Below the pieces are notes generated by a model, which did no database searches, had not been told where the DNA came from, and worked only from the letters and a program-made list of their open reading frames with translations. From IMG/VR virus record IMGVR_UViG_3300033066_002009, positions 8,961 through 72,960 of that record: a stretch of DNA of 64,000 nucleotides. One strand, written 5' to 3'. Position numbers and translations under genes: made by a program. Shown piece by piece: positions 1,112 to 20,005 of this stretch; position 1 is the first letter of the stretch, and each line of letters begins with the position of its first letter. Origin of the DNA: a virus.

Positions 1112-1513
1112 ATGCGCCTGTATTACGAGGAATTTCCCGCTGGATTGTTGCCCATGAACACCTTGTTTGCCCGTGACACTCGCAGCCTCCGCTGGGATTT
1201 TAGCGACACTGCAAGTGCTGCGTTCCTCGCACACGATGGAAAGGGCCGCATCATGGCCGTCATCAATTTCGACGCAATCGGGCGGCATCGATACGGCACA
1301 CGGCTGGTACAGCTGTACGTCGCTTGGGTGCATCCCTCACTGCGGGGCAGAGGCGTCGTGACGCAGCTGCTTGGTCTCCTGGTAGGCAAGTACCGCCCTA
1401 GTAAGTTCTGGGCTAAGGCTGTAACGCGAAACGGCGTTCGTATGCTTCGTGGGTTGGCTCGCCGCTATCCCTTGCTCAACGTGGTCAATGGTGATGTTAG
1501 GGTGCTCGGTTGA
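1112..1513 (+). CDS. GNAT family N-acetyltransferase
   Basis: RBS GAGGA before the ATG. Motif-A-like QLYVAWVHPSLRGRGVVTQLLGLLV. Confidence 0.6.
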   Translation: MRLYYEEFPAGLLPMNTLFARDTRSLRWDFSDTASAAFLAHDGKGRIMAVINFDAIGRHRYGTRLVQLYVAWVHPSLRGRGVVTQLLGLLVGKYRPSKFWAKAVTRNGVRMLRGLARRYPLLNVVNGDVRVLG

Positions 1514-1746
1514 TGGAGCGATATCGGGATTTCCGAGATGTACCTTCGGCTGATTCTCTTTTGCAATTCTGCAGGCGCTGCAGGCGCTGCAGTCGTTGGC
1601 ACCGCGTGGACCGCCCGGGCTCTTGCTTTGTAGATATCACGTATCGATACCCTAAGGAGTTCTGGGTAGCGCGGGGGATTGGTTATACGTTTGGCGTGAT
1701 CGCTGGAAATGGTAATCGCGTCATAAACCCGGGGGAAGGTATTTAA
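1510..1746 (+). CDS. Cys-rich small protein with C-terminal xYTFG motif (family A, array 1, member 1)
   Basis: Pattern CxxCxxCxxWH...GYTFGV. Start overlaps the upstream stop (ATGA). Confidence 0.55.
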   Translation: MMERYRDFRDVPSADSLLQFCRRCRRCSRWHRVDRPGSCFVDITYRYPKEFWVARGIGYTFGVIAGNGNRVINPGEGI

Positions 1747-2006
1747 TGGAGAGCCCCATTGCGTCGATGCCCGAATGGCTGCGCGACAGCAAAGTTCCGA
1801 TGTTCCTGTGTATCTCTTGTGACCATTTCCACCCCACGCATGACGCTATTACCGGTAAAGACCTTTGTTTAGCGCCTTGCCCGACAACGGGAGGCTACTC
1901 CACGTTTAGCGCGTTTTTGTATCGAAGCGGTGTTGTGTACACGTTCGGCATTCTCGACGATACGGGTAGTTCAATCCCGCTGGAGGTCTTGTCGTGGACA
2001 AGCTGA
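1746..2006 (+). CDS. family A member 2 (C-terminal VYTFGI)
   Basis: Paralog: CISCDHFHP...GVVYTFGI. Start overlaps the upstream stop (TAATG). Confidence 0.55.
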   Translation: MESPIASMPEWLRDSKVPMFLCISCDHFHPTHDAITGKDLCLAPCPTTGGYSTFSAFLYRSGVVYTFGILDDTGSSIPLEVLSWTS

Positions 2007-2260
2007 CCGAGTCCCCCCGCTTCCCTGAAGGCGGTGATTGGCTCCTTTGGTGGTGTTTGTATTGTACGCATTGGCATCCAGTTGTCTTGCCAGATGGTCT
2101 TCGTGCGTGGCAAAACGGCGGTTGTAGCGCCTTGGAGAGTTACCCAACGGCCATGGCTTTCTTTAACACTGTCGGCGCTGCGTACACTTTTGGTGTCGTT
2201 ACTTTCGTGGTTGAGGGTCTCAGATACGCCGCCAGCGGTAATCTCTATCCAGAACCGTAA
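1994..2260 (+). CDS. family A member 3 (C-terminal AYTFGV)
   Basis: Paralog: WCLYCTHWHP...AAYTFGV. Confidence 0.55.
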   Translation: MDKLTESPRFPEGGDWLLWWCLYCTHWHPVVLPDGLRAWQNGGCSALESYPTAMAFFNTVGAAYTFGVVTFVVEGLRYAASGNLYPEP

Positions 2261-2273
2261 AAGAGGCAATGCG

Positions 2274-2522
2274 ATGACATTCAAGTCTTGTTTTGAAGAG
2301 ATTGTCCTCCGTTCCCGCGTCACTTGGTGTACACGTTGCGCGGCATATCACCCTGACGTGTCAGAAGATGGCCATGACTTGAGAAATGTTCCGTGCATGG
2401 CACGAGAGCAACACAAGCGCTTAGTCTTGTTCTTTAGTGCTCGCGGCCTTGCATACACTTTTGGCGTAACCAATTACGGTGGAATCCTTTATCCACCGCA
2501 TGTTCTTTTGGACGGAGTGTAA
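2274..2522 (+). CDS. family A member 4 (C-terminal AYTFGV)
   Basis: RBS AAGAGG. Paralog: WCTRCAAYHP...LAYTFGV. The longer ORF from 2034 is judged a frame artefact. Confidence 0.55.
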   Translation: MTFKSCFEEIVLRSRVTWCTRCAAYHPDVSEDGHDLRNVPCMAREQHKRLVLFFSARGLAYTFGVTNYGGILYPPHVLLDGV

Positions 2523-2775
2523 TGTGTCGAAGCTGACGCTGGATAACAGCACCCTTATTTGGTGTACGTATTGCCGCCAGTGGCATTTAATGCCTAAACG
2601 GAGTTTCACTGGGCAGGTCGGGTCTTATGAGTGTATAGACCTTGTAAGTTACAAGACGGCGATGTCTTGTTTCCAGGACCACGGTGTGGTCTATACCTTC
2701 GGTATCATTGCAGGCCCCACATCGGGTTACCGGTATAGCACAAGCGGCGGCATTACCGTTGTCATGGGGGAATAA
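2479..2775 (+). CDS. family A member 5 (C-terminal VYTFGI)
   Basis: Paralog: WCTYCRQWH...VVYTFGI. Exact start uncertain (2479 or 2497). Confidence 0.5.
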   Translation: MESFIHRMFFWTECNVSKLTLDNSTLIWCTYCRQWHLMPKRSFTGQVGSYECIDLVSYKTAMSCFQDHGVVYTFGIIAGPTSGYRYSTSGGITVVMGE

Positions 2776-3426
2776 GTGACTCGCATGGTTTTAATGAGTG
2801 ACACACATAATCGTCACGACAGACTCACAGTCCCGGAGGGGGATATTGTCATTCACGCGGGTGACGCTACGTGGGGCGGCACTTACCGAGAGTTAAAGCC
2901 CTTCGCTGGGTGGTTTTCCGGGCTACCCCACAAACATAAAGTAATGGTTGCAGGAAACCACGACGATCTCTTGTCAATTGATCCGGAGATCGTCACTTCG
3001 CTCGGCATTCATTACTTGGCTTACGCGTCAGTGACTTTGGAAGGCCTCCTGATCTACGGTGGCCCTTTCTACACTGTTCCAGATAAGCGCGTATACCGCA
3101 TCGACGAGAGATGGGCTGCATTCAAGATTAGCGAAGTGTGGGCTGAACGCGCGTTTTCAGAGGCGCCTAGTAATCCAGATATTGTTGTGACGCATAGGCC
3201 CCCAAGAGGAACTCTCGATTGGGTGATTGGTGACGGGGTTCACGGCGGAAGCTTAGCTGTGAAGAAGTACGTGGAACGTGTAAAGCCAAGGCTCCACGTC
3301 TTTGGACACATTCATGATAGCCGCGGGAAGACCCAGACACCTGGAACCCTGACGTTGTACGTGAACGCTGCGTGCCACGACGAAAACATGAACTTCGTTG
3401 ACGGCTGTTACGTCGTCGATTTGTAA
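2776..3426 (+). CDS. calcineurin-like metallophosphoesterase
   Basis: Motifs SDTHN, GDATWGG, GNHDD and GHIHD. Confidence 0.7.
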   Translation: MTRMVLMSDTHNRHDRLTVPEGDIVIHAGDATWGGTYRELKPFAGWFSGLPHKHKVMVAGNHDDLLSIDPEIVTSLGIHYLAYASVTLEGLLIYGGPFYTVPDKRVYRIDERWAAFKISEVWAERAFSEAPSNPDIVVTHRPPRGTLDWVIGDGVHGGSLAVKKYVERVKPRLHVFGHIHDSRGKTQTPGTLTLYVNAACHDENMNFVDGCYVVDL

Positions 3427-3435
3427 GGGGCTCAA

Positions 3436-3735
3436 ATGGAATACATGGATCCCTGGCCGTACCAGGAGCTGCTGCGCTCCGCTCCCCGTTACGTGAAACG
3501 TGACGGCACCGGACGTGTTTGCATCCTCTATAGTGCGTTTTACCGAACTAGTTTTCATCGACGAGCATTTGGCCTGCCGCCACTTGAATCAGACGGACAC
3601 ATGGTATTCCGTTTTCGATGCGGTGATGATATGTCCGTCAAAGGTGTAAATCGTGGCTGTTATCATCCTCGCTTTGCTCTCTGGAAAAGGCTCTTCGCCG
3701 ATTTTCCGAACTGTATGGCGTGCATGTCGGAGTAG
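3436..3735 (+). CDS. small protein family B (C-terminal CMxCMxE) member 1
   Basis: Motifs PRYVKRDGTGRVCIL and NCMACMSE. Paralogous to the next six family members. Confidence 0.5.
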   Translation: MEYMDPWPYQELLRSAPRYVKRDGTGRVCILYSAFYRTSFHRRAFGLPPLESDGHMVFRFRCGDDMSVKGVNRGCYHPRFALWKRLFADFPNCMACMSE

Positions 3736-3751
3736 TAAAAGGATAGCCACC

Positions 3752-4009
3752 ATGTACCACATGAGCCCACGTGACTTCATAGAGGCGCTTCACCAATCCC
3801 CTAGATTTGTAAAGAGACCAGACCGTCAACGGGTTTGTATTTTGCGGTCTTGTTGGTCAACTCTAGCGAACCAAGTAGTCATGTACTACAAATGCGGGGA
3901 CATCGAGCTTTTCGATGGGGGCGCGTACAGCCGACGAAAGAGGCGTTACGCGCTTTCAGATAAGGTTTTTGTCGATGCGCCAACGTGTATGTTGTGTATG
4001 GCTGAATAA
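3752..4009 (+). CDS. family B member 2
   Basis: RBS AAAGGA. Motifs PRFVKRPDRQRVCIL and TCMLCMAE. Confidence 0.5.
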   Translation: MYHMSPRDFIEALHQSPRFVKRPDRQRVCILRSCWSTLANQVVMYYKCGDIELFDGGAYSRRKRRYALSDKVFVDAPTCMLCMAE

Positions 4010-4026
4010 CAACGCGGGAGGTTCCG

Positions 4027-4305
4027 GTGGAACATCTGTTGTACTACGAAGTGCTTCAGCGTATCCGCCACGGCCAGCCGTTCAAACGCCCGGGTACGTC
4101 ACTCGTTTGCGTCGTACACGCAATCAGTCGTTCCAGCAATGCTAAGTGCGTTTACATACGCACTAAGTGTAGGGACAGCGTACTCATTGCAGAGCCGTGG
4201 CTCGTTGGCCTGGGTACTGTGGCGTATGCGCGTATCTTGGTAGAAGAAGTAAACGCGCACGACGGCAATGTGAATTGCATGATGGGGTGCGCAGAGGGGG
4301 AATGA
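4027..4305 (+). CDS. family B member 3 (GTG start)
   Basis: RBS GGGAGG 7 nt upstream of the GTG. Motifs QPFKRPGTSLVCVV and NCMMGCAEGE. Confidence 0.45.
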   Translation: MEHLLYYEVLQRIRHGQPFKRPGTSLVCVVHAISRSSNAKCVYIRTKCRDSVLIAEPWLVGLGTVAYARILVEEVNAHDGNVNCMMGCAEGE

Positions 4306-4643
4306 TGGACAAAGGAGAGCTGCAGGTCACGGTCAAGACCTTCATGGAGGAAAGCCTCAGCGTGTTGGTATGTGCGTGCTACGTCGATGCGATGATACGC
4401 CGCGCAAGTGATGTCGTGCGCAGCCATCAGTCCTGGTGGCGTCGATTGGCCGCTCGACCGGTGCCCCCGTATCCGTTGATTGACGAGATCGTCGGATACG
4501 TGAAGTTGGCAAGCGTGCTCCCCATGGAGCGCGTGATCGGCGTCGACGCGAGAATCTTCGCACGGTACGACGACTGCAAAAGTCTTGCGGACCAGATCCG
4601 CCAGACGCAACCTGCGCACACGGTCCACAAGGAGGCCAAATGA
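4302..4643 (+). CDS. small protein family C (WWRR motif) member 1
   Basis: RBS GAGGGGG. Motif SWWRRLAARPVPP. Confidence 0.5.
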   Translation: MMDKGELQVTVKTFMEESLSVLVCACYVDAMIRRASDVVRSHQSWWRRLAARPVPPYPLIDEIVGYVKLASVLPMERVIGVDARIFARYDDCKSLADQIRQTQPAHTVHKEAK

Positions 4644-5011
4644 TGTTCGTCACAATGTCCGTGAAGAAGTTCCGCGCAGAGTGTTACGAGGCGCTCGAAA
4701 GCGCGCTGTACCTGGACCACGCCATTCGGCTGGCCACACAGGGCATCTACAACAAGGCGCCGTGGTGGCGTCGACCCTTCTTGCCTCGTTCGTCCAGCCG
4801 GTTCTGGATGATCAACAAGGTCGTCTTCCACCTCTCGGAGGTGGCGATCGCGGGCGAGGATCAGATGATCGAGGTCGAGGGCACCCTCTTCCACAGGTTC
4901 AATCAGATCAACGGCCTCGCTTCGAATATCCGCATCGCTGTTGAAGGTGGTGCCCCTGCTCCGGCTACGCTCAAGGCGATCCAATTCGACCTGGACCGCA
5001 TCAATGAGTGA
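4640..5011 (+). CDS. family C member 2
   Basis: RBS AAGGAGG. Motif KAPWWRRPFLP. Confidence 0.5.
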   Translation: MMFVTMSVKKFRAECYEALESALYLDHAIRLATQGIYNKAPWWRRPFLPRSSSRFWMINKVVFHLSEVAIAGEDQMIEVEGTLFHRFNQINGLASNIRIAVEGGAPAPATLKAIQFDLDRINE

Positions 5012-5324
5012 TTCCGCCGAGATGCCCGCCCGGGAGTTCAAGGAGAGGTGCAAGGCGACGATGGACAGCATCGCATTCCTCGCACCCATCCTCGCCGCCG
5101 TGCGGCAGGACGAACGGGCCAAGCTTCCGTGGTGGCGCCGTTTTTTCGTTCCCAAAGACACCCAGTGCCCAAGGGCGCTCGCCATTGTAGAAAACTTTTT
5201 GGCACAGGTAGACGGATTCTACGGAACCGTGATCGTGAATACGTGGATCCTAGCTGCTTTTGATGCCTGGGATCGAATCGCTGCCGAGGTGCGAGAGCCC
5301 TTCAAGGGCGCGCCTTATCGATAG
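5004..5324 (+). CDS. family C member 3
   Basis: Motif KLPWWRRFFVP. Start overlaps the upstream stop. Confidence 0.45.
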   Translation: MSDSAEMPAREFKERCKATMDSIAFLAPILAAVRQDERAKLPWWRRFFVPKDTQCPRALAIVENFLAQVDGFYGTVIVNTWILAAFDAWDRIAAEVREPFKGAPYR

Positions 5325-5333
5325 GAGAACAAC

Positions 5334-5609
5334 ATGGGCCGCTTGGTGAGCGCAAAGGAGTTCTGCGACGCCCTCCCCAGGATAGGGGAACCGATGCACC
5401 GCCTGGGAAGCAACATTGTTTGCGAGGCGAACGGAACGGACATCGGTGCGTACAGTTACGTGGTGCACCTCTTCACCCGTTGCAGAGAGTACGATGCTCT
5501 GTATAGCATCGAACCAGAACTCCTTTGCGTAGAGTTCGACCTTTCCACCGCCGTAAGTGTCGGGGGAGCCCCCGCCGTCACTTGCTTCAAATGCCTGACA
5601 ACGGAGTAA
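5334..5609 (+). CDS. family B member 4
   Basis: RBS AGGAG. Motifs PMHRLGSNIVCE and VTCFKCLTTE. Confidence 0.5.
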   Translation: MGRLVSAKEFCDALPRIGEPMHRLGSNIVCEANGTDIGAYSYVVHLFTRCREYDALYSIEPELLCVEFDLSTAVSVGGAPAVTCFKCLTTE

Positions 5610-5612
5610 ACC

Positions 5613-5930
5613 ATGGGACAGAGAGTTGCCGGATGGCGTTTTATGGAATTACTCCCGTTGCCGGGAGCCCCGATCAAGCGCCACGGATCCCCGCTGACGT
5701 GCCAAGTAAAGAAACGGCAGTTGTCTTCCAAAGGCAGCATCATCATCGTCAAGATGGAATGTGGCCAGTCCCTGGCATTTGGGTCACTCCACGACAAGGA
5801 AGGAAACTTCGTGTTCGATAGTGACGCGGCTGCAAAGGCACACGCGGATGTTGTGACATGTATGGACTGCCAGTTCGACCTCGTAGAGCCTGTGGAGGAT
5901 CCTCGTTTTTGGGAGATGGAAGGAAAGTGA
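5613..5930 (+). CDS. family B member 5
   Basis: RBS GGAG. Motifs PIKRHGSPLTCQ and VVTCMDCQ. Confidence 0.5.
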   Translation: MGQRVAGWRFMELLPLPGAPIKRHGSPLTCQVKKRQLSSKGSIIIVKMECGQSLAFGSLHDKEGNFVFDSDAAAKAHADVVTCMDCQFDLVEPVEDPRFWEMEGK

Positions 5931-6211
5931 ACCGTAGAGTCTACGCGAAAGCCTTTATGGAGACGTTGCCCCAAAAGGGACAGCCAATCCGCTTCCAACA
6001 CCACAAACTCAATCACTGCGTAAACAAACTGCTCATCGGTGGGTATGGGCAGATCGTTTGGGTAGAAACGGTGTGTTCAAAGTACCTCCCTTTCCAAAGC
6101 ACAACTCCCATAGACCGCGCAACCCCGAAGTTCAACAAAGACATTGCAGCGGCAGCGCATGCCGAAGCCGTTACGTGTTTGTACTGCGTGGCGGGGGTTC
6201 CCGCCGAATAA
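5927..6211 (+). CDS. family B member 6 (GTG start)
   Basis: RBS GGAAGGA. Motifs QPIRFQHHKLNHC and AVTCLYCVAGVPAE. Confidence 0.45.
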   Translation: MNRRVYAKAFMETLPQKGQPIRFQHHKLNHCVNKLLIGGYGQIVWVETVCSKYLPFQSTTPIDRATPKFNKDIAAAAHAEAVTCLYCVAGVPAE

Positions 6212-6220
6212 GGAGGCGCC

Positions 6221-6493
6221 ATGGGTGCAAAGCTTTCCGCGCATGAATTCTGTCGGAGGTTTCCGGACTACGACCGCCCCATAAAGTTACCGAACAGCCC
6301 CTTAGTACATCGCCTTGTCAGTATTGACCCGTACGCATCTCATGGCTTCATCCGAGCGAACGCAAAGTGTGGCCATGTTTACCGATACCTCCCTACTTCG
6401 CGAAAACGCGGTAAGCCCATGTACGACGCCGCCGAGCTTCACAAAGTCTCGGCGTCCTTAGTGACTTGCATGTTGTGTGAGGTGTCGGAATGA
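6221..6493 (+). CDS. family B member 7
   Basis: RBS AAGGAGG. Motifs PIKLPNSPLVHRL and LVTCMLCEVSE. Confidence 0.55.
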   Translation: MGAKLSAHEFCRRFPDYDRPIKLPNSPLVHRLVSIDPYASHGFIRANAKCGHVYRYLPTSRKRGKPMYDAAELHKVSASLVTCMLCEVSE

Positions 6494-6511
6494 CTACCTC
6501 AGATTTCCGAC

Positions 6512-7030
6512 TTGCCTTTTGTGCATTACGTAGTTCTTCCCCGATTCCCTTCGAGGTTTCCGATGGAACAGCTGTGTCTCCCTGAGTTCGAGCCCTGGGT
6601 TGATGAACGTAACAAAGATTTGCTCGCGTCTTTCAAAGCGCGATTGCCCCAGCTCAAGGCGCTGCTCGCTAAGGTAGAGAGTCACTGGCGGATGGAGGAC
6701 ATGTTCTACCGTTTCTATCATCATAGTTTCAAGGTTTTCTACATGCAGAACGACACGGCAGAAATCGTCAAGCTCTTGCGGGAGTTCGCCGGAAAGCGGG
6801 GGCTTAGTAAGGCGTTCCTCGATATTGTCGAAAACGGCGCTAAGCAGAAGTTCAGTTGGGAAACTACCAATAAGAACTGGGCCGCAGAGACGCAGCCGAT
6901 CCTCGAGGCATTTTTTCACGCCCACTACTTTCTCAAGCTCATCTGCCAGTACGCAGAACAGCTTGAATACGCGCCCTGCCAGTTGCCGAGTGGTTGGGCC
7001 GTAGTGCTCTACCTTTACAACACCAGATGA
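6512..7030 (+). CDS. hypothetical protein
   Basis: 172-aa ORF on the coding strand of this array. No recognisable motif. Confidence 0.45.
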   Translation: MPFVHYVVLPRFPSRFPMEQLCLPEFEPWVDERNKDLLASFKARLPQLKALLAKVESHWRMEDMFYRFYHHSFKVFYMQNDTAEIVKLLREFAGKRGLSKAFLDIVENGAKQKFSWETTNKNWAAETQPILEAFFHAHYFLKLICQYAEQLEYAPCQLPSGWAVVLYLYNTR

Positions 7031-7263
7031 CCCACGATATTGATGTATATACGTTTGGACATCTGAGCACGTTCGCTGCTCCTCCATTCTATTACGTTTG
7101 CAGTTACTGTCGCATAAAGGTAGCACGTGACAGTAACGTCGTGCGGTCTTGGTGGTCTTGCCTGTATTGTTACAGCGGGACGTGTGGGGTGCACGGAACT
7201 TTCCTCAACGGGCCTTGTCCCGGCGCTAAGGATGAGGTTCGAAATGTCAAAGACTCCTCCTAA
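7027..7263 (+). CDS. N-terminal xYTFG zinc-finger small protein (family A, N-motif subtype)
   Basis: Sequence MTHDIDVYTFGHL followed by CSYC...CLYC...C..C. Start overlaps the upstream stop (ATGA). Confidence 0.55.
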   Translation: MTHDIDVYTFGHLSTFAAPPFYYVCSYCRIKVARDSNVVRSWWSCLYCYSGTCGVHGTFLNGPCPGAKDEVRNVKDSS

Positions 7264-7411
7264 AGCTCTCAACCCATGGCCTCCTCTTGCCCCCACTGAC
7301 GGCGAAACTAACTTCGAGCCTCCGCGGCCCCTTTTCCATGGATCTGTTGTGCACACGACGCAAAATGGAGAAGGGGCTATGGCGCGCCTCAGAAAGAAGA
7401 CTCGTACATGA
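7244..7411 (+). CDS. small hypothetical protein
   Basis: RBS AGGATGAGG then ATG. 55 aa. Confidence 0.3.
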   Translation: MSKTPPKALNPWPPLAPTDGETNFEPPRPLFHGSVVHTTQNGEGAMARLRKKTRT

Positions 7412-7794
7412 GCCGGACGTTCCGTCACGTTGACAACCCGAAACGTATTTGGCTTGCCCCTGCGGATTACCCCAGGTACTCGTCGACTAAATCATATTGG
7501 AATGACATTACCCGCGGCTGGGATTACGAAGTCTGGGAGATACCTATAACAAAAACAAAAGAATATTACACGTTCGGAGCCTCATCGCGCCTGGCGTTTG
7601 CAGCGGATTCGCCCAGCTATTCGTGGATCCACCGAGACCATAGAACCCGTGGAAAATCCTGCGGAGGCCCAGAACGCTGTTTCCGAGAATTGCGGAGGCT
7701 TTTCTTACGAGAAGCCTTGGAGGCTTGTACGGCGGCTTATTCTCGCCCACGCATTGGAAGCCCCTGTCGAGTTACTTGTCGGCCTGGGCCGTAG
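7408..7794 (+). CDS. hypothetical protein containing a YTFG motif
   Basis: Contains EYYTFGASSRL. Confidence 0.4.
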   Translation: MSRTFRHVDNPKRIWLAPADYPRYSSTKSYWNDITRGWDYEVWEIPITKTKEYYTFGASSRLAFAADSPSYSWIHRDHRTRGKSCGGPERCFRELRRLFLREALEACTAAYSRPRIGSPCRVTCRPGP

Positions 7795-7803
7795 GAGACT
7801 CCC

Positions 7804-8028
7804 GTGGCAAGAAAGAAACACGCCCCAGATTCTTACACTTTCGGTCGATTTGGATATGACTGTGCCTATTGCGGCGCGTCGCTCTCATCTTGGTATTCTT
7901 GTTTTTGGTGCATGAGCCCGCACTGTAACTGGCACGTCCTCCACGGTGCTTACGTCTGCACTAATAAAGGCACGTGCCCAGTTCCACGGCATATGTGGGT
8001 AAAAGGCACTGACAACCTAGGAGGTTAA
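7804..8028 (+). CDS. N-terminal xYTFG zinc-finger small protein
   Basis: Sequence DSYTFGRFGYDCAYCG...CFWC...CNWH. Confidence 0.55.
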   Translation: MARKKHAPDSYTFGRFGYDCAYCGASLSSWYSCFWCMSPHCNWHVLHGAYVCTNKGTCPVPRHMWVKGTDNLGG

Positions 8029-8029
8029 T

Positions 8030-8650
8030 GTGCCCAAGGAAGAGCTTCACTTGCACCACTGCAAGTGCACACCGAATGCCCTCATTCCGGCGGTGGGGTC
8101 CGCTGACGAGGTCAGTGAGGCGCCCAGGGTGTGTCCGAATTGCGATGCGCGCACGGCCCACTTCGTCCGACTCGCTACGGCCGAGGAATACACGGCGTTC
8201 TCTCCGCAGCTGGCCGAGCGACACGCGAAGAGGGACTCGGGGTTCGCGTACCGCCACATGTATTTCCAGCAGAACCAGGATCGCCTCGCGCACTACATAC
8301 GGCGTGCCCGGGCGCTGGCCGCGGAATCAAACGTCCCTCACTGCGCGGTGTGTATCGACCCCGATGACACGCCGTGGCGGCCGCTCGTGGACCTCCTGAT
8401 GCCCCGGTACGACTGGGAGGCCGTCCGAGCCACGGTCCCCGACCGCCGTCCCGCCGCGAACAGCGCAATTCCGCTCGCCTTCCTGCAACGCTGGATCGGC
8501 CGTTTCCGCCCCCTGCTCCTCAATGGCGGCGTGCTGATCTGCCCCAATGGGCCGGAAGACGCCGCGGAAGTGGACGTGTTCGTGATGGCCAAGGGGGGCA
8601 TCGCCAAGTACGCCTGCCGCATCCCGGAGGAGGCGATCCATGTCAACTGA
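8030..8650 (+). CDS. hypothetical Cys/His-containing protein (GTG start)
   Basis: RBS AGGAGG 5 nt upstream of the GTG. High-GC coding region. Contains CKC, CPNC and CAVC. Confidence 0.5.
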   Translation: MPKEELHLHHCKCTPNALIPAVGSADEVSEAPRVCPNCDARTAHFVRLATAEEYTAFSPQLAERHAKRDSGFAYRHMYFQQNQDRLAHYIRRARALAAESNVPHCAVCIDPDDTPWRPLVDLLMPRYDWEAVRATVPDRRPAANSAIPLAFLQRWIGRFRPLLLNGGVLICPNGPEDAAEVDVFVMAKGGIAKYACRIPEEAIHVN

Positions 8651-9044
8651 TTGCCCGGACATGGCAAAGCGGATGGCCGCCCTGGCCAGCGAACAGGACC
8701 GCATGGCGCACCTTCTGAAGATCTGCGTCGTTGCGCGAGCGGCGCGCCTCGCCGATGGTCGAATGGCTACGCCGCTGTGCGCCGTGATCCTCTTTCCGGA
8801 GGATCAAACGGCAGCGCGCTTCGAGCGATTCATCGCGCCGCTCGGCTTCACGGTCATGTTCCCCAATGATAGGGCCTACGCATCGTTCGCAATGCCTCAG
8901 AGGCTCGTCCAGGCTTTCATCGAAAGTGAAGACCTGTTCGAGCACCACTCCGAGGGAGACCCCACAACATCGAATGTTCGCGCCTACATCATCGGGGAGA
9001 ATGGCGTGACCGTAGCCACCATCGATGAGTCGACGCTGCCGTGA
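8640..9044 (+). CDS. hypothetical protein
   Basis: 134-aa ORF overlapping the upstream gene end in the operon. Confidence 0.45.
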   Translation: MSTDCPDMAKRMAALASEQDRMAHLLKICVVARAARLADGRMATPLCAVILFPEDQTAARFERFIAPLGFTVMFPNDRAYASFAMPQRLVQAFIESEDLFEHHSEGDPTTSNVRAYIIGENGVTVATIDESTLP

Positions 9045-9241
9045 GTCGCAAGAAGGACGAGGAGCACGGGCCCGATGGGTACACCTTCGGGTTCGTGTAT
9101 TTTGCTAACACTGTACAAAGAAAATGCCGGCGTTGTGATCTACCAGTGTATTTCACACGAGGTAGGTACTGGTGTATGTTTTGTGGTTCCTCTGCCTGTT
9201 GTAACAATCACAGGCTCTGCAAAGAAAGGATGTGTAAATGA
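9041..9241 (+). CDS. N-terminal xYTFG zinc-finger small protein
   Basis: Sequence DGYTFGFVYF...CRRCD...CMFCGSSACC. Confidence 0.55.
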   Translation: MSRKKDEEHGPDGYTFGFVYFANTVQRKCRRCDLPVYFTRGRYWCMFCGSSACCNNHRLCKERMCK

Positions 9242-9900
9242 CCCCGGATAATCAGAACAAGCGCATTCGAATTATGCTGGTCCTGAATTGTGTCGCCTTC
9301 GCCATTGCCGGCGCGAACATCATTTCGGCGGCCTATGCCAATGATCGAAGTGCCAGCGCCCGCGCTATGCTGACGGAAGCCAGCGCCTCTTTGGCCCACG
9401 CAAATGCCGTTCTCGAGCAAGCGAAAGCCGCGCGAAAGCAGGAGTGCGCAGAGCTGATGACGCCGCCGCCCGCCCCCTCCGAAGGCGCTGCACCGGCTCC
9501 TTCAGAAGGCCCACCAAACCCACGTGATCGTGTGGTCCACTGGAGCATCAAGGACATGCGTGTCGGCGTGGCCACGGTGTTCGGCGGAACCGCGACGGAT
9601 CACCTGGACAACCCTGATGACCGCCTGGCATGCGCCTGGCCGGTTTGGGGTATCAGAAATCGCCGACTCCAGCCCGATGATCTCGTGGTGGCGACGTACG
9701 TTCTCCCCTGCGGAACCAACGTCCTTCTTCATCTGCCTCGGACCAATAAGTCAGTCATGGCCTTGGTTGGTGATCGAGGACCGGGACGCACGAAGCACAA
9801 CCCTGAACTTCGTCAGACGGATCTCGACATCTCTGAAGCTGCCGCAAAGGCATTGGGCCACAACGGCAAGGAGGAAATCGTATGGGGGGTGGTCAAGTAA
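9238..9900 (+). CDS. secreted RlpA-like double-psi beta-barrel (DPBB) domain protein, putative cell-wall-active
   Basis: N-terminal hydrophobic segment, Ala/Pro linker, then VGDRGPGRT...DLDISEAAAKALG. This resembles the RlpA/3D domain. Confidence 0.45.
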   Translation: MTPDNQNKRIRIMLVLNCVAFAIAGANIISAAYANDRSASARAMLTEASASLAHANAVLEQAKAARKQECAELMTPPPAPSEGAAPAPSEGPPNPRDRVVHWSIKDMRVGVATVFGGTATDHLDNPDDRLACAWPVWGIRNRRLQPDDLVVATYVLPCGTNVLLHLPRTNKSVMALVGDRGPGRTKHNPELRQTDLDISEAAAKALGHNGKEEIVWGVVK

Positions 9901-10160
9901 AGCGATACCACCGACTGGAGGCATACACCTTTGGCGTGCCAGACTCTGTTCTGCGCACGCCATTGTTTTGCCTGTTGTGTCATGTGGCGCTGTTTCTGCA
10001 CGGCAAGTCCATCTACGACGGTTCCCTTTATTTACGTTGTAAGAAATGCATGAGCCGATTGTGCACTTCGCAGATACATCGAGAGAATTGTTTGTACGAG
10101 CCTGACGCCATCATAACGTCGCCGCCATTTCAACAGTTGACACAGGAGGAGTTTGAATGA
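9882..10160 (+). CDS. N-terminal xYTFG zinc-finger small protein
   Basis: Sequence EAYTFGVPDS...CLLCH...CKKCMSRLC. Confidence 0.5.
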   Translation: MGGGQVKRYHRLEAYTFGVPDSVLRTPLFCLLCHVALFLHGKSIYDGSLYLRCKKCMSRLCTSQIHRENCLYEPDAIITSPPFQQLTQEEFE

Positions 10161-10453
10161 CGATCGCGTTGTTTGTTTTTGCGGCTTGGACCGCTTGTGC
10201 CGCCACGGCGGCATATCTCGCTGGCCTGTCAAAAACCGCGTATGACGGCGAAGATGTTTTTGTCATGTGCCTGTTCGCGCCGTTGTCGCTGGTTTACATG
10301 ACCGCCAAGATTGCGCATGAGTCAGGAGACCGGAAATTCCGGCTCGAACGGGAGGCGATAAATCACGCAGCTGCCCTGCGAGAGCAGCGCCGTCTTTGTG
10401 AACTGGAAGCTGCGAAGGATGAACTCAAGGAATTCAAGAGGCTCAGCAAATGA
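10157..10453 (+). CDS. small membrane protein
   Basis: Two hydrophobic helices, then a charged coiled segment. Confidence 0.4.
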   Translation: MTIALFVFAAWTACAATAAYLAGLSKTAYDGEDVFVMCLFAPLSLVYMTAKIAHESGDRKFRLEREAINHAAALREQRRLCELEAAKDELKEFKRLSK

Positions 10454-10785
10454 AGATCATCGGACGGCTTGAGGATGGATATATCTTGAGTGCCACGAAA
10501 GCCGAGGTCGCACACATCGCAGGATGGGCACATCACCAGACCATGTACGAAAGCGCGGCAAGCGCCGTTCGTCATCGTGACCGATATGAGTTCAATATCG
10601 GCACAGTGATTGATATTGGCGACTGCTGGCGACGGTTCAACGCTTTTCTCCAGAGTGTTGACGCTCGAAAGACCGCCGCGAAGACGTTGCAATCGCTCAT
10701 CGACGCTTTGGAGATCCCGATGCCGTTGATCGACGGCGACAAGCACGAACCGGCCAAGGCACCGACTGTCCTTGAAATAGATTAG
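10450..10785 (+). CDS. hypothetical protein
   Basis: 111-aa ORF overlapping the upstream stop. Confidence 0.4.
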   Translation: MKIIGRLEDGYILSATKAEVAHIAGWAHHQTMYESAASAVRHRDRYEFNIGTVIDIGDCWRRFNAFLQSVDARKTAAKTLQSLIDALEIPMPLIDGDKHEPAKAPTVLEID

Positions 10786-10788
10786 ACC

Positions 10789-11037
10789 ATGGCTCACCGG
10801 CATTCCGTTGATTATTATACCTTCGGATTCGGGTACACACTGGTCCACCGTCGTGTCATGTGCGCAGTTTGCTTCGCGGAGGTTGGCCTCTATTTTTCCT
10901 CTGACGCGAGAGACCCCATTTACCCGCGCTGTCTTTGGTGCGGTGGCTTAGAGTGCCATGACCGGACCAATCCCTGTTCTTTCCGAGGAGGCTATTTCAA
11001 CCATGTTGTGGGAAATTCTGGTTCCGACGGTCCGTAA
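10789..11037 (+). CDS. N-terminal xYTFG zinc-finger small protein
   Basis: Sequence VDYYTFGFGY...CAVCF...CLWCGGLEC. Confidence 0.55.
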   Translation: MAHRHSVDYYTFGFGYTLVHRRVMCAVCFAEVGLYFSSDARDPIYPRCLWCGGLECHDRTNPCSFRGGYFNHVVGNSGSDGP

Positions 11038-11314
11038 TGATGGAAAGCCGTTTCGAACGCGCTATCACCGCGTGTGGGATCAAAAGGTCCGTGCAATAAG
11101 CGGTGGAATTACCATCATGCCGGTGGCCAAGGGTCAATGGGTGTCTCCCGATGGCGCTCTTTTCCAAGAGCGCATGATCCCCGTTCGGATCGTCGCAACA
11201 AGAGCGCAGATCGAGGCGATCGTAGACATCACGCTGCGCTATTACGACCAGCTGGCGGTTCTCGCGTACAAAGTATCCGATGAGGTCATATTGCGGCACA
11301 GGCAAGGAGGGTGA
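11003..11314 (+). CDS. hypothetical protein
   Basis: RBS GAGGAGG then ATG. 103 aa. Confidence 0.45.
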   Translation: MLWEILVPTVRNDGKPFRTRYHRVWDQKVRAISGGITIMPVAKGQWVSPDGALFQERMIPVRIVATRAQIEAIVDITLRYYDQLAVLAYKVSDEVILRHRQGG

Positions 11315-11317
11315 CGC

Positions 11318-11539
11318 ATGGTGCTACATCGTTTAGCTAGTGTAGGTTACACGTTCGGCTGGGCTTACAAGTTTGATAAAGAGCTACCCCTGTGCGCAAA
11401 CTGCAATATTCCACTGTTTGGCACGATGGTACCGCCCACTTGTCGGTGGTGTATGGGTTTAACATGCGCCGGTCACACGCTTGAATCCGCGTGCGCGATC
11501 AATCTTCGGAAGGCATACAGCATTAAAGGAGGCCCCTAA
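11318..11539 (+). CDS. N-terminal xYTFG zinc-finger small protein
   Basis: RBS AAGGAGGG. Sequence VGYTFGWAYKF...CANCN...CRWCMGLTC. Confidence 0.6.
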   Translation: MVLHRLASVGYTFGWAYKFDKELPLCANCNIPLFGTMVPPTCRWCMGLTCAGHTLESACAINLRKAYSIKGGP

Positions 11540-11754
11540 TGCACCCGTGCACCACGATCGCATACACGTTTGGTTGGGCGTCAAGTTACGACGCCAATCC
11601 GCCTACTTGCGAAAGGTGTGGTATCCGTCTTTTGGTAATCGACGGAATCCCCGCGTGTCACTGGTGCCTGTCTGACTCGTGTGATGGACACGGCAGCGGG
11701 TCTTGTTGTGACCTGGGTACCTGGCCTCAGCGTACTTCTAAACGGTCGGGCTGA
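11539..11754 (+). CDS. N-terminal xYTFG zinc-finger small protein
   Basis: RBS AAAGGAGG. Sequence IAYTFGWASSY...CERCG...CHWCLSDSC. Confidence 0.6.
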   Translation: MHPCTTIAYTFGWASSYDANPPTCERCGIRLLVIDGIPACHWCLSDSCDGHGSGSCCDLGTWPQRTSKRSG

Positions 11755-11987
11755 TGCAAGGTCATTATTTAGAGGGATACACATTCGGACACGCTTACCG
11801 GCTAGATCATGCTTTAGCTCTCTGCACGCTTTGTGGGATGGTAGTTACCCTGGATAGGTGGGACTTACGTTGTTATTGGTGCCACGCCATTGATTGCCAA
11901 GGCGACCACTTTCATGTCCCGCGTTGCAAGGAATTGACTGACTATGCGATCGCATCTACAAAATCCGATTTTGCGGCGGCCCGCTGA
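11754..11987 (+). CDS. N-terminal xYTFG zinc-finger small protein
   Basis: Sequence EGYTFGHAYRL...CTLCG...CYWCHAIDC. Confidence 0.55.
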   Translation: MQGHYLEGYTFGHAYRLDHALALCTLCGMVVTLDRWDLRCYWCHAIDCQGDHFHVPRCKELTDYAIASTKSDFAAAR

Positions 11988-12000
11988 CAAAGGAGCTGTA

Positions 12001-12528
12001 ATGGATCCACTTCGACATGTAAAATTCTTCGCAGCTACGAAACATCGAGGACAGGAATACGCGCTAGGGTTGCCGTACACTCATCACCTTGCAAATGTGG
12101 AGGCGGTATTAAGGCGTTTCGGAGTCGGAAACCCTTTCCACGATCCGGGTAACTACGTGGCGCAGGATGACGAGGACGTGCTAACGGCTGGCTGGCTTCA
12201 CGATATCGTAGAGGACACGGAAACGTCAATCAAAGAAGTCGAGGAAATGTTCGGCCCGCGCGTGGCCGTCCTCGTTTCCGCCGTAACGAACGAGCCCGGG
12301 CCCAATCGAAAGGTGCGAGCCGCACTTACATACCCGAAGATCCGCGCTTGCCCCGGGGCTACAATGCTCAAGCTCGCGGATCGTATCGCTAATGTCGAAA
12401 TAGGTGGAAATCTCGTCTCGATGTATGCGAAAGAGTACGAGGATTTTCGCCGAGCCCTGTACACTGCAGGAGAAAACGAGGCCATGTGGGCACACTTAGA
12501 CGCATTATTGCTCGCATCAAAGGTGTAA
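12001..12528 (+). CDS. HD-domain phosphohydrolase (RelA/SpoT-type (p)ppGpp hydrolase-like)
   Basis: RBS AAAGGAG. Motifs YTHHL and GWLHDIVEDT. Size and motifs fit a small alarmone hydrolase. Confidence 0.6.
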   Translation: MDPLRHVKFFAATKHRGQEYALGLPYTHHLANVEAVLRRFGVGNPFHDPGNYVAQDDEDVLTAGWLHDIVEDTETSIKEVEEMFGPRVAVLVSAVTNEPGPNRKVRAALTYPKIRACPGATMLKLADRIANVEIGGNLVSMYAKEYEDFRRALYTAGENEAMWAHLDALLLASKV

Positions 12529-12779
12529 CGGGCGACGCTTATTGTGAGCACTATTCATTCGGTACCCTCACGTTGAGGGGCCAGTGGGTACCCGGTCCAG
12601 AATTGTTCTTTGGCCGATTCACAATGGTCGGCCACTGGTGGAGTGACAATGTTGTTGTAGACGGGATACCTTCGTGGCCCCTTAAATCCATACTCCTTGA
12701 GGAAGTAGGGCACTTCAGTGTTTGGGCAAAAGAAAGGGGTATCCGTGAATATCACGAGCGTGGACGAATACCTCGATAG
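12486..12779 (+). CDS. hypothetical protein with YSFG motif
   Basis: Contains CEHYSFGTLTL. Confidence 0.35.
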   Translation: MGTLRRIIARIKGVTGDAYCEHYSFGTLTLRGQWVPGPELFFGRFTMVGHWWSDNVVVDGIPSWPLKSILLEEVGHFSVWAKERGIREYHERGRIPR

Positions 12780-13029
12780 ATACACGTTTGGGGTTGTCGT
12801 GCCGGAGGGCGCGAACATACAGTCCCTGTGTATCTTTGAATTTACTCGAGACATAAACTCAAAACCCGTCCGGACAACTCGCGCAAATAACACACTAATG
12901 AAGCATTTTAAGGGAGAGGCCGACAATGAAGCGCAAAGCAGAGCGTGGCTGCGGGCGCTAGCAGCCTCCAATGATTTCATGCGCTGGTGTATTTGGAGAG
13001 GAATCCATGAGCATATTTTTCACGAGTGA
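12745..13029 (+). CDS. hypothetical protein with N-terminal xYTFG motif (GTG start)
   Basis: RBS GAAAGGGG. Contains DRYTFGVVVPEG. Confidence 0.4.
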   Translation: MNITSVDEYLDRYTFGVVVPEGANIQSLCIFEFTRDINSKPVRTTRANNTLMKHFKGEADNEAQSRAWLRALAASNDFMRWCIWRGIHEHIFHE

Positions 13030-13591
13030 CGAGCATTATTACCACGAGAACATCATCAAGTTCGCAAAGCGCCCCTTCTCAGGTCTCCCTGAGATGCACG
13101 AAGCGCTGATTGCGGGGCACAACGAAGTGGTCAAGTCAAATGACGAGGTTTACCATCTAGGTGATATCGCGTTCTGCGACGTCGCCCACCTGCGAGAGAT
13201 TGTACGCAGGCTCAATGGTAAGCACCACTTGATCTACGGAAACCACGACGCCAAGCGACTCCTTGGCGTGCGGCCAGCGCTTTACGGCTTCGAGACCGCC
13301 CGTGCGTTTCACGAGATCCGTGTGCCTGACGAAACCGTGACCAAAGGGCGCTGCAAGGGCACGCAGCCTATTGTCCTACTTCATTACGCCATGCGTGTGT
13401 GGAACAAGTCGCACTACGGAGCGTGGCAGCTTTACGGCCACAGCCACGGCACGCTCAAAGATGACCCTCATGCCCTTCAGCTCGACGTAGGCGTGGATTG
13501 CTGGGATTACAAGCCAGTGTCATACGAGCGTGTGCGTGAGGAGATGAAGAAGAAGCTCTTTATTCCCGTTGATCAGCACGGAGCGGACTAG
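13007..13591 (+). CDS. calcineurin-like metallophosphoesterase (second copy)
   Basis: RBS GGAGAGG. Motifs TSDEHY, GDIAF, GNHD and GHSHG. Confidence 0.65.
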   Translation: MSIFFTSDEHYYHENIIKFAKRPFSGLPEMHEALIAGHNEVVKSNDEVYHLGDIAFCDVAHLREIVRRLNGKHHLIYGNHDAKRLLGVRPALYGFETARAFHEIRVPDETVTKGRCKGTQPIVLLHYAMRVWNKSHYGAWQLYGHSHGTLKDDPHALQLDVGVDCWDYKPVSYERVREEMKKKLFIPVDQHGAD

Positions 13592-13833
13592 TGGACGGGT
13601 ACACTTTCGGCGTGATGTCCCGTAACGGGACCGTGTCCACTGAAATGCGCCCGCGATTTGACCCATGGATCCGGCATCTTTTTCAAGTTGGCTTACGTTC
13701 CTAGGCCTGAAAAGCGCGATAAAAAATGCCTGACGTCTATACCTTTGATATTTCTATTCGAAATGGCAGCGTACTTATAGGGCACGGACTCCGTTATTCG
13801 GCGCTGCTCAATCCAGTTACTTGAGAGGAACTA

Positions 13834-14427: not shown

Positions 14428-14457
14428 AAGAAGCTGACAACCAAAAAAGGAGCGTGC

Positions 14458-15083: not shown

Positions 15084-15107
15084 AAGGCCGCGAACAACGT
15101 ATCACAA

Positions 15108-15143: not shown

Positions 15144-15152
15144 CTCTTTGGA

Positions 15153-15163: not shown

Positions 15164-15184
15164 TTGCCACCGAGGAGGCCGCTA

Positions 15185-19257: not shown

Positions 19258-19476
19258 ATGGCAGACGGAAGCCAGACGTATACGTGGGGATTTCTGGACA
19301 TCACCTACAAGTGTGCTGCGTGCCGCGGCCTTATCTGGCCCGATATGGCAGTGCACGGATTGACGGGACACGCGTGTCAAGAATGTGGGCGGTTCTTTTG
19401 TCATAATTGCTATGACCCAGACATCGAGACCCGGCATGCGCAAAGTTATTGCTATTGCCATTGTAAGGTGAATTAA
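19258..19476 (+). CDS. N-terminal xYTWG zinc-finger small protein
   Basis: RBS GGAGG. Sequence QTYTWGFLD...CAACRG...CQECG...CHNC. Confidence 0.55.
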   Translation: MADGSQTYTWGFLDITYKCAACRGLIWPDMAVHGLTGHACQECGRFFCHNCYDPDIETRHAQSYCYCHCKVN

Positions 19477-20003
19477 TGGCTCACCATCCGGATTTGTATA
19501 CCTTCGGTCCGTCTAACTCTGGAGAATTAGCTGCGTATCCTTTTTGTTGCCGCGATTACTTTGTACTCCTTAAATCGTTAGGCCCTATCGTTTCCTACGT
19601 TTGCAGCGGATGCGGTGAGACCTTTCACTTAGCCTGTTATTACACTGGTAGGGGTCAGGGTGTTTGCAAGAAACCAACACACAGAAAGGTAAGTAAATTG
19701 GGAGATTTTAACAACGACCATATCGAAGCATTGCGCCGGGGAGAGACCGTTCGTATCCGGCCGCACGGCAACTCAATGTTGCCGCGTATCAAAAGTGGCC
19801 AGCTCTGTGTCATCCAGCCTATTGGGGACCACGAGTTGGAAAAGGGAGACGCCGTCCTTTGCACGGTCAATGGGAGGCGATACCTTCACAAAATTTATGC
19901 TATTCGAGGTAACCAGGTTCAAATCGGAAACAACCATGGACACGTAAACGGTTGGACGACAAAGGAGAAGGTTTACGGGTTGTTGGCCGCTGTGGAGGAT
20001 TAG
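19476..20003 (+). CDS. xYTFG zinc-finger domain fused to an S24 (LexA/UmuD-like) peptidase domain
   Basis: N-terminus DLYTFGPSN...CSGCG. C-terminus HGNSMLPRIKSG...RYLHKIY, i.e. a Ser-Lys dyad motif GxSM...K. Confidence 0.55.
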   Translation: MAHHPDLYTFGPSNSGELAAYPFCCRDYFVLLKSLGPIVSYVCSGCGETFHLACYYTGRGQGVCKKPTHRKVSKLGDFNNDHIEALRRGETVRIRPHGNSMLPRIKSGQLCVIQPIGDHELEKGDAVLCTVNGRRYLHKIYAIRGNQVQIGNNHGHVNGWTTKEKVYGLLAAVED

Positions 20004-20005
20004 TT

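Follow-up and report, generated by a model that had tools for sequence, protein, structure and literature searches.

What is the significance of a short peptide that recurs in a large number of small proteins encoded by a single phage, and do the proteins carrying it constitute one family? These questions are raised by a stretch of 64,000 nucleotides (nt) from the virus record IMGVR_UViG_3300033066_002009 (positions 8,961 to 72,960 of that record), which in its entirety is referred to here as the window. An earlier note on this DNA had reported at least 20 small open reading frames (ORFs) carrying the tetrapeptide YTFG, or the variants YSFG and YTWG, and had regarded them as an expanded family of zinc-finger proteins. 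Our analysis identifies 21 such ORFs, all on the + strand (Table 1). The genes are real and conserved at the protein level; as judged from their sequences, they represent three architectures, referred to here as groups A, B and C, and not one alignable family; and they are restricted to one lineage, comprising two phages, in which the family is expanded and fast-evolving. The interpretation that we tentatively favour is that they are a lineage-specific, rapidly evolving set of small zinc-finger and other proteins, which share the YTFG segment as a portable element for contacting a common partner.

Conservation of the YTFG motif at the protein level

In the 64-kb window, the pattern Y[TS][FW]G has 21 occurrences in the three + strand frames and is absent from the three − strand frames. 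The corresponding degenerate DNA string, TAYACNTTYGG, has 17 matches, all on the + strand, versus 0.24 ± 0.53 in shuffled sequences. When the 21 sites are aligned on the motif, the information content shows a periodicity of three, with 1.6-2.2 bits at codon positions 1-2, about 1 bit at twofold wobble positions and 0.1-0.2 bits at fourfold wobble positions, while the 45-60 nt flanking the motif contain essentially no information at the DNA level. All four bases occur at the third positions of the ACN and GGN codons, and the Ser residue of the variant motifs is encoded by TCA, TCG and AGT, that is, by codons of both the TCN and the AGT families. As the variation is confined to wobble positions and includes switches between the Ser codon families, the selection is on the protein, and the earlier proposal that the conservation is of the protein and not of a DNA repeat is upheld.

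If the motif was instead an element of the DNA or RNA (viz. a promoter, a recombination site or a repeat), or if the ORFs were spurious, then its strand-specificity and its occurrence near gene starts could be accounted for, and also the result of a codon-usage test of reading frames that is described below. However, the restriction of the variation to synonymous positions, the unconserved flanks, and the absence of any long DNA repeats linking the motif copies in the window are contrary to this explanation, as is the fact that the motif, although found in each of the three + frames, is in every case in an open one. Matches to sigma-70-like promoter and terminator consensus sequences in the window are also not enriched over those in shuffled sequences. 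Further, the protein pattern is maintained in a second phage (described below), whose guanine-plus-cytosine (GC) content is 12 percentage points lower, which rules out both chance and explanations at the DNA level. Hence, we consider this alternative to be effectively refuted.

All of the 21 ORFs are free of internal stops at the coordinates given in Table 1. Most of them are preceded by a Shine-Dalgarno-like sequence, the feature whose absence the earlier note had considered fatal to its proposal, and several overlap their neighbours by ATGA-type start/stop junctions. On two Logan contigs that are identical in sequence to the window, a gene caller recovered every one of the five group A genes, along with most of the remaining members. 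These Shine-Dalgarno sequences, coupled overlaps and independent gene calls suggest that the genes are expressed. The automatic annotation is nonetheless under-counting the family, because for the ORF at 9041-9241 the Logan gene caller took an overlapping frame (9075-9251), and the ORF at 10789-11037 was omitted, although both of these match the family hidden Markov model (HMM) at E ≤ 1e-16.

Three architectures carrying the motif

Group A consists of five ORFs in the region 1510-2775, which align with each other from end to end. In agreement with the earlier description, their motif is C-terminal and follows a W-C-x2-C-x2-[WFY]-H finger. The overall layout is W-C-x2-C-x2-[WFY]-H…C, a short helix, and then G-x-x-YTFG-[VI]-[VI]-x3-4-G near the C-terminus, so that the motif lies about 60 residues into the protein, after the helix and about 20 residues past the last ligand. 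With four candidate ligands, these proteins would contain a single zinc site. In a structure predicted with AlphaFold2 (AF2) for member 3 of this group, with a mean predicted local distance difference test score (pLDDT) of 62, a zinc-knuckle hairpin is followed by the helix, YTFG and a β-hairpin.

Group B, the double-CxxC fingers, consists of eleven ORFs in the window that are alignable with thirteen proteins of the second phage. In an alignment of 23 group B sequences, the Tyr and Gly of the motif and five Cys residues are invariant, and the general spacing is H-x4(6)-YTFG-x2 or x9-15-CxxC-x8-26 (mode 12)-CxxC-x4-C-x2-4-H-x2-16-C. The remaining five ORFs, designated group C, are heterogeneous and carry the motif in the absence of a finger. 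They share only 13-19 residues surrounding the motif, which correspond roughly to [DE]-x-YTFG-Φ-Φ-x3-G. The Tyr of the motif is 7-25 residues from the start in both groups B and C. The inventory of members thus requires some revision, as nine motif ORFs, and not ten, are present at 7027-11987, and the ORFs at 12486-12779 (YSFG) and 24678-25112 (YSFG plus FTFG) had been missed. Similarly, the earlier statement that outside group A the motif lies about 10 amino acids (aa) from the N-terminus and is followed by two CxxC pairs is accurate for 11 of the 16 ORFs concerned, but it does not apply to those at 7408-7794, 12486-12779, 12718-13029, 13591-13704 and 24678-25112.

When the profiles of groups A and B are compared with each other, just 11 columns around the motif can be aligned, and therefore the motif element acts as a module that is independent of the finger. 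Due to this, the description of these proteins as a single family, alignable beyond the tetrapeptide, is valid within group A and within group B, but not between the groups, where the similarity is limited to these 11 columns for A and B and to the 13-19 residues for group C. To this extent, the lack of alignment that the earlier note had named as refuting its proposal is observed from one group to another.

Ligand pattern of the group B proteins and comparison with known fingers

The position of the motif in group B can be understood from the distribution of a His residue that precedes it. Among all 43 + strand motif sites, from the window and from two contigs of the related phage, a His is present 5-7 residues before the Tyr in 22 of the 26 sites with a double CxxC, versus 1 of the 17 sites without it (Fisher p = 5e-7). 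An acidic residue at position −2 is, by comparison, common to sites of both kinds. Since the His co-varies with the finger, group B has eight conserved candidate ligands, and with the upstream His as ligand 1, YTFG is situated after ligand 1 and before ligands 2-3. In six members on contig L002 of the related phage the first CxxC starts only two residues after the Gly of the motif. Hence, in group B the YTFG segment, which the earlier note had proposed to test as a short linear motif, is predicted to be part of the folded domain and not a free linear motif in a tail. The ligand pattern likewise implies two zinc sites in place of the simple zinc ribbon that the earlier note had envisaged.

The order of these eight candidate ligands, with an N-terminal His as the first of them and two interleaved zinc sites implied, resembles that in the C1 domains (PKC and GEF-H1; PF00130), and YTFG sits where C1 domains have their β1-β2 loop. 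In C1 domains, whose signature is H-x12-C-x2-C-x13/14-C-x2-C-x4-H-x2-C-x7-C, this loop, lying between ligand 1 and ligands 2-3, makes contacts with both the ligand and the membrane. In a profile search of PDB, the C1 domain of GEF-H1 was the best match (E = 3.5e-4), in an alignment that matches YTFG to a YTNG immediately preceding the His of C1, a coincidence on which this match depends. It was followed by many FYVE domains (E = 0.03-10), and the weak matches (about 13 of 35 FYVE) also included B-box, RING and AN1 domains. However, these results should not be interpreted as indicating that the group B proteins are C1 domains, as their ligands 6 and 7 are Cys and His (C-x2-H) where C1 has His and Cys, the gap between His and CxxC is 10 or 17-23 residues instead of 12, so that the signature is not matched, and none of the 23 members matched PF00130 even at E ≤ 10. 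We have retained the C1 domain solely as an analogy in ligand layout, after a profile limited to the core of the finger lost its PDB match.

The binuclear treble-clef fingers of the FYVE, AN1, PHD and RING types are the source of the recurrent weak matches of group B. When the 23 group B members were scanned individually against Pfam, nothing was found above threshold; the sub-threshold matches were to FYVE (three), AN1 (two) and C2HC5 (two), and to PHD-like, Prok-RING and zinc-ribbon models once or twice each. The group B core, CxxC…CxxC-G-x2-Φ-C-x2-[H/C], corresponds to the central 'CxxCgxxfCxxC/H' of FYVE and AN1. However, the three FYVE (PF01363) matches are below the gathering score (best E = 0.015, 15.8 versus 27.8 bits), and the group B alignment lacks the WxxD, R(R/K)HHCR and RVC motifs as well as the eight Cys ligands of FYVE, having no basic RHHCR patch, a His as ligand 7 and a single terminal Cys. 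For AN1 (C-x2-C-x9-12-C-x1-2-C-x4-C-x2-H-x5-H-x-C; PF01428), the first six ligands and their spacings fit group B, but the terminal H-x-C is missing, with a single Cys and the N-terminal His in its place, and the matches in 2 of the 23 members are sub-threshold (best E = 0.031). Unlike all of these fingers, the group B proteins are stand-alone phage proteins of 66-92 aa encoded in tandem arrays. On the basis of these comparisons, group B is best described as a new finger family, whose predicted layout resembles that of two-zinc interleaved fingers but which does not belong to any of the named families tested.

One group B variant (19476..20003) requires separate consideration, as its finger is joined in frame, with no stop between the domains, to an S24 peptidase domain. 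More than 100 relatives, many of them on contigs of 100-450 kb, have the S24 domain as a free-standing protein of about 101 aa; most of the relatives listed (about 100 aa) match only the S24 half of the query, and the finger is found in the window protein alone. In the related phage, the gene upstream of S24 is unrelated. The window also retains an in-frame TTG at 19698, preceded by AAAGG, at the position where the S24 orthologues start with MGDFNN, and both the fusion protein and a separate S24 peptidase may be made. In view of these stand-alone orthologues and of the retained internal start and ribosome-binding site, we have discounted the fusion as a clue to function. A LexA/CI-type repressor, consisting of a DNA-binding domain and S24, was also considered and rejected, as the two-domain architecture is not conserved in the orthologues.

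Distribution and divergence of the family

The earlier note recognised no annotation for these proteins, and none was found in Pfam, PHROGs, PDB, GenBank phage records, IMG/VR or GTDB. Scans of ten members against Pfam and PHROGs gave nothing above threshold, and tblastn searches with three members against 50,697 GenBank phage records gave no match. Word-index homology searches with alignments over 5.8 billion proteins retrieved nothing beyond the proteins of the phage itself. The pattern H[QKG]P[ED][GA]YTF(G) had no match in IMG/VR, and none of its 10 matches in JGI metagenomes and 9 in GTDB genomes could be confirmed. Literature searches on YTFG in phages and on zinc-finger paralogue arrays in jumbo phages yielded nothing relevant. 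An exhaustive HMMER search of 1.84 billion representatives identified one true foreign member, P0010 (E = 3.7e-4), the other matches being Cys-repeat noise.

P0010 is encoded on a 10-kb contig (L002) with a GC content of 43 % versus about 55 % in the window; L084, another contig of that sample, likewise shows synteny with the window. These two contigs contain 22 further + strand motif sites in syntenic arrays. Of these, 13 correspond to the group B fingers included in the alignment, and three finger-less relatives adjoin the same DSPc phosphatase gene as group C does in the window. The mean identity among the fingers, both within and between the two phages, is 26-31 % (maximum 47 %), with no recognisable one-to-one orthologues, whereas the flanking enzymes of the two phages are 42-73 % identical, and the number of family copies between shared anchor genes differs in the two phages. 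The earlier characterisation of these proteins as tandem, rapidly diversifying Cys-rich paralogues is thus well founded.

Interpretation of the YTFG element and the alternatives considered

According to the interpretation that we favour, a group B protein would bind two zinc ions by means of eight ligands (His, CxxC, CxxC, x4-C-x2-H and the final Cys), with the N-terminal His completing the second site and the segment [DE]-x-Y-T-F-G-Φ forming an aromatic strand or turn that is exposed and held by the metal sites. A segment of about 10 residues, YTFG-Φ-Φ-x3-G, is also carried by two other scaffolds, viz. those of groups A and C. As the motif is no less invariant in proteins that lack a finger, it is probably a constant contact element for one common partner, which could be a phage or host protein or a surface, while the remainder of each protein would diversify towards different specificities or targets. 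The set would act as intracellular adaptors or inhibitors early in infection. Phospho-regulation of the motif is conceivable, as it contains Tyr-Thr.

Several observations weigh against this interpretation. YTFG is separated from the first CxxC by either 2 or about 11 residues, a division into two classes that is unusual for a rigid element, and the conserved Tyr, Phe and Gly beside the zinc knuckle could be the mini-core of a small finger. In the AF2 model of a group B protein (11318..11539; pLDDT 64), the finger core scores 71-76 but the N-terminus and the YTFG segment score below about 50; this model and that of group A (62) are of low confidence and were built on shallow alignments limited to the window. 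When the N-terminal element was trimmed from the profile, the C1 match was lost and the best match became a FYVE domain (ZFYVE19, E = 0.015), and therefore the assignment of a fold class rests on the ligand pattern and not on homology. In the codon-usage test, for which the composition of these ORFs is odd, roughly half of the members showed no clear preference for the annotated frame. Further, metal binding, expression and the partner are all predictions.

If Y, F and G served purely as the hydrophobic core or turn beside a zinc knuckle in one ancestral mini-domain, the source of all the motif-bearing ORFs, then no shared partner would be needed, and the members could act independently or evolve neutrally as duplicates. 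Classical zinc fingers have an aromatic residue before the first Cys, and small fingers typically retain just their ligands and a few aromatic residues. The placement of CxxC two residues after YTFG in the six L002 members, the location of YTFG between candidate ligands in group B, and the descent by duplication that the tandem arrays imply are all in accordance with such an origin. However, the motif is equally invariant in the finger-less group C, in both phages and at syntenic positions, and also in group A, where it comes after a helix about 20 residues beyond the last ligand. Most members accommodate an insertion of some 11 residues that separates YTFG from the knuckle, and profile comparison finds nothing else in common to groups A, B and C. 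We consider a purely structural role, on balance, to be rather unlikely. Less likely than this, though still worthy of consideration, is that YTFG is a portable sorting or docking tag that gives more than 40 otherwise unrelated small proteins one common fate, the variable zinc fingers being the payloads. This fate would be delivery in the virion followed by ejection into the host, entry into a phage-built compartment, or the capture of one host hub protein; the phage also encodes a major-vault-protein-like shell protein. The tag would be comparable to the capsid targeting sequence of T4 or to RxLR and PEXEL, which are effector motifs of eukaryotic pathogens. In the T-even internal proteins, which are otherwise diverse, the capsid targeting sequence is the only conserved part (PMC3012670), and they resemble the YTFG set in bearing a short constant peptide on diverse small phage proteins of one variable region (PMC3012670). 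However, in contrast to that leader of about 10 aa, which is fixed at the N-terminus and has a prohead-protease site, YTFG is not at a fixed N-terminal position, being C-terminal in group A and between candidate ligands in group B, and no L/I-x-E site is found in the members.

A more specific proposal, which we regard as improbable, is that [DE]-x-YTFG is a sorting or processing signal read by a phage protease (the S24 or papain-like peptidase, or a prohead protease), a capsid scaffold or a compartment, leading to cleavage, to packaging and ejection, or to degradation. It is consistent with the occurrence of one short, constant element in small proteins that are otherwise diverse, mostly at a distance of 7-25 residues from the N-terminus, with the in-frame fusion of one member to an S24 peptidase and with the presence of a papain-like protease at 55366-56142. 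However, a protein cut at YTFG or ahead of it would lose the His co-varying with the finger, the distance from the N-terminus is variable with the group A motif being C-terminal, the S24 fusion seems incidental, and here also the lack of an L/I-x-E type site is unfavourable. It is very improbable that the proteins are precursors resembling ribosomally synthesised and post-translationally modified peptides (RiPPs), with thioether or cyclophane cross-links introduced by the radical SAM enzyme at 15164-16048 and with YTFG as the recognition element of a leader or follower. It is typical of RiPPs that the precursors are present in several copies, in which the recognition motif is constant and the core variable; in both phages the radical SAM gene follows the arrays at a distance of a few kb, and its product weakly matches NCBIfam peptide-maturase families, all far below the cut-offs. 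However, in 81 other huge-phage loci with a radical SAM homologue (about 0.8 Mb), none has a group B homologue or at least two YTFG sites, and no tetrapeptides of the YTFG kind are enriched. Due to this lack of co-occurrence, the link of the YTFG set to the radical SAM enzyme was rejected. In addition, the eight conserved ligands have the paired CxxC/His spacing of zinc fingers, the proteins are 66-100 aa long, and there is no adjacent peptidase or transporter cassette.

Genomic setting of the arrays

The features of the locus are listed in Table 1. The accessory block around the YTFG arrays is co-oriented on the + strand and includes, besides the flanking genes of group A, a cluster of signalling and nucleotide enzymes (11944-22760). 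This context fits an accessory or host-manipulation role without proving it, and it is the sole basis on which the role in host takeover or anti-defence proposed by the earlier note may be considered. Small early-protein sets are known in large phages, one example being the host-takeover module of SPO1. Like such modules, the YTFG set consists of many small, co-oriented, packed genes in an accessory block with putative host-manipulating enzymes nearby. However, the YTFG genes differ in being paralogous and in having an invariant motif and a metal-ligand pattern.

Table 1. Motif-carrying ORFs and other features of the window, with positions counted from its first nucleotide
Feature	Position	Strand	Description
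Group A member 1	1510..1746	+	78 aa; CRRCxxWH…C…GIGYTFGVIAGNG; HMM E = 1.3e-26; called on Logan contig L087; alternative ATG start at 1513
Group A member 2	1746..2006	+	86 aa; CISCDHFHP…C…VVYTFGILDDTG; HMM E = 5e-32; called on L087; Shine-Dalgarno-like GGGGGAAGG
Group A member 3	1994..2260	+	88 aa; WWCLYCTHWHP…C…AAYTFGVV; HMM E = 8e-31; Shine-Dalgarno-like GGAGG
Group A member 4	2274..2522	+	82 aa; WCTRCAAYHP…C…LAYTFGVTNYGG; HMM E = 9e-30; called on L087
Group A member 5	2479..2775	+	98 aa; WCTYCRQWH…C…VVYTFGIIAGPTSG; HMM E = 2e-30; GTG start at 2479, independent gene call begins at 2524
Group B finger	7027..7263	+	78 aa; H-x4-YTFG-x13-CSYC-x16-CLYC-x4-C-x2-H-x7-C; HMM E = 3.6e-16
Group B finger	7804..8028	+	74 aa; H-x4-YTFG-x5-CAYC-x9-CFWC-x4-C-x2-H-x7-C; HMM E = 1.8e-13; Shine-Dalgarno-like TAGGAG; gene call on L001
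Group B finger	9041..9241	+	66 aa; HGPDGYTFG…CRRC…CMFC-x4-C-x3-H…C; HMM E = 1.1e-17
Group B finger	9882..10160	+	92 aa; HMM E = 1.5e-17; Shine-Dalgarno-like AAGGAGGA; identical to public-collection protein P0003
Group B finger	10789..11037	+	82 aa; HSVDYYTFG…CAVC…CLWC-x4-CH…C; HMM E = 6.5e-17; absent from Logan gene calls; weak ribosome-binding site
Group B finger	11318..11539	+	73 aa; H-x6-YTFG-x11-CANC-x12-CRWC-x4-C-x2-H-x5-C; HMM E = 3.8e-20; Shine-Dalgarno-like AAGGAGGG; weak FYVE match, E = 0.015
Group B finger	11539..11754	+	71 aa; ATGA overlap with preceding stop; HMM E = 1.2e-18; Shine-Dalgarno-like AAGGAGG
Group B finger	11754..11987	+	77 aa; HMM E = 9e-19
Group B variant	19258..19476	+	72 aa; YTWG, without upstream His; HMM E = 6.7e-10; GGAGG; identical to P0005
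Group B variant	19476..20003	+	Residues 1-74 HHPDLYTFG, degenerate first knuckle; in-frame S24 peptidase domain 19698-20003; group B HMM E = 4.7e-10; Peptidase_S24 E = 4.3e-6
Group B, Cys-rich member	25100..25312	+	70 aa; HREEYYSFG…C-x3-C-x2-C-x-C…C…C-x2-C; identical to P0004; positional orthologue L084:2447 carries YYTFG (synteny, 33 % identity)
Group C, odd member	7408..7794	+	128 aa; EYYTFG mid-protein; no double CxxC; no Pfam match; only motif region common to other members
Group C	12486..12779	+	97 aa; CEHYSFGTLTLRG (YSFG), no finger; gene call on L001; shares only about 16 aa with other members
Group C	12718..13029	+	103 aa; LDRYTFGVVVPEG, no finger; gene call on L001
Group C mini-ORF	13591..13704	+	37 aa; GTG start overlapping phosphoesterase stop; VDGYTFGVMSRNG; least certain gene, absent from gene calls
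Group C	24678..25112	+	144 aa; YSFG and second FTFG
GNAT acetyltransferase	1112-1513		Flanks group A
Metallophosphoesterase	2776-3426		Flanks group A
Second paralogue family, seven ORFs	3436-3735, 3755-4009, 4027-4305, 5334-5609, 5613-5930, ~5918-6211, 6221-6493	+	85-105 aa; consensus F.E.LP..G.P.KR.G..LVC…C…VTCMxC..E
RelA/SpoT-like HD_4 protein	11944-12528	+	Enzyme cluster
Second metallophosphoesterase	12971-13591	+	Enzyme cluster
DSPc dual-specificity phosphatase	13834-14427	+	Enzyme cluster
Radical SAM enzyme, unclassified	15164-16048	+	Enzyme cluster
PTH2-like peptidyl-tRNA hydrolase gene	within 11944-22760	+	Enzyme cluster
S24 peptidase domain	19698-20003	+	Accessory block
PknB-like Ser/Thr kinase	21303-22760	+	Enzyme cluster
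Papain-like protease	55366-56142

The window looks like a part of a huge, tRNA-rich phage, because it contains 39 tRNA genes and a transfer-messenger RNA (tmRNA), has no nucleotide match among GenBank phage records and encodes a protein resembling the major vault protein (MVP). The tRNA genes, which are mostly in one − strand array, and the full-length tmRNA (131 bits) are located at 33688-43934 and 49523-49869. The MVP-like protein (879 aa; 30956-33595, +) has a shoulder domain (E = 1.6e-24) and is 35 % identical over its full length to proteins of the uncultured huge phages LR756500 (462 kb) and LR756501/LR756503 (735 kb), which are its only relatives in the GenBank phage collection. A vault-shell-like protein in phages is unusual.

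Some other features of the locus were also observed. The seven small ORFs of a second paralogue family, unrelated to the first, lie at 3436-6493, between the two YTFG arrays. Upstream of the block, a region of about 880 nt without called genes (231-1112) separates a − strand gene from the start of the + strand block; the arms of an imperfect 45-nt inverted repeat are located within it, at 299-343 and 936-980, and it could be a regulatory or origin-like region. The ORF at 14458-14844 (+; 128 aa) has a type IV pilin-like N-terminus (MKSKGLTVVELMVGMVALFVLGV…) and also contains GYTFLGG, a near-miss to the YTFG motif. On a 60-kb contig (L086; Logan SRR21686411), a type I-C-like Cas5d/Csd1/Cas7/Cas3 cluster (14121-19984) is found about 4 kb downstream of a close stand-alone homologue of the S24 domain. 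Three huge-phage metagenome loci (L006, L013 and L030) have 8-16 copies each of DNA repeats with identical tetrapeptides in several frames, which may be tandem or CRISPR-like arrays.

Significance of the YTFG set

Huge phages contain large blocks of small genes without known function, which offer few handles for their study. If group B indeed binds two zinc ions in a C1/FYVE-like manner, then a class of fingers known chiefly from eukaryotic signalling proteins would extend to stand-alone phage proteins. If YTFG is a sorting tag, it would represent a novel means by which a phage directs many effectors simultaneously, and a usable targeting peptide. If, on the other hand, it is a structural mini-core, the set would be simply another lineage-specific expansion. 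With an invariant element of four residues, a clear pattern of eight ligands and 40-odd natural variants in two phages, the YTFG set provides a compact system for asking whether one partner is targeted by a whole gene family.

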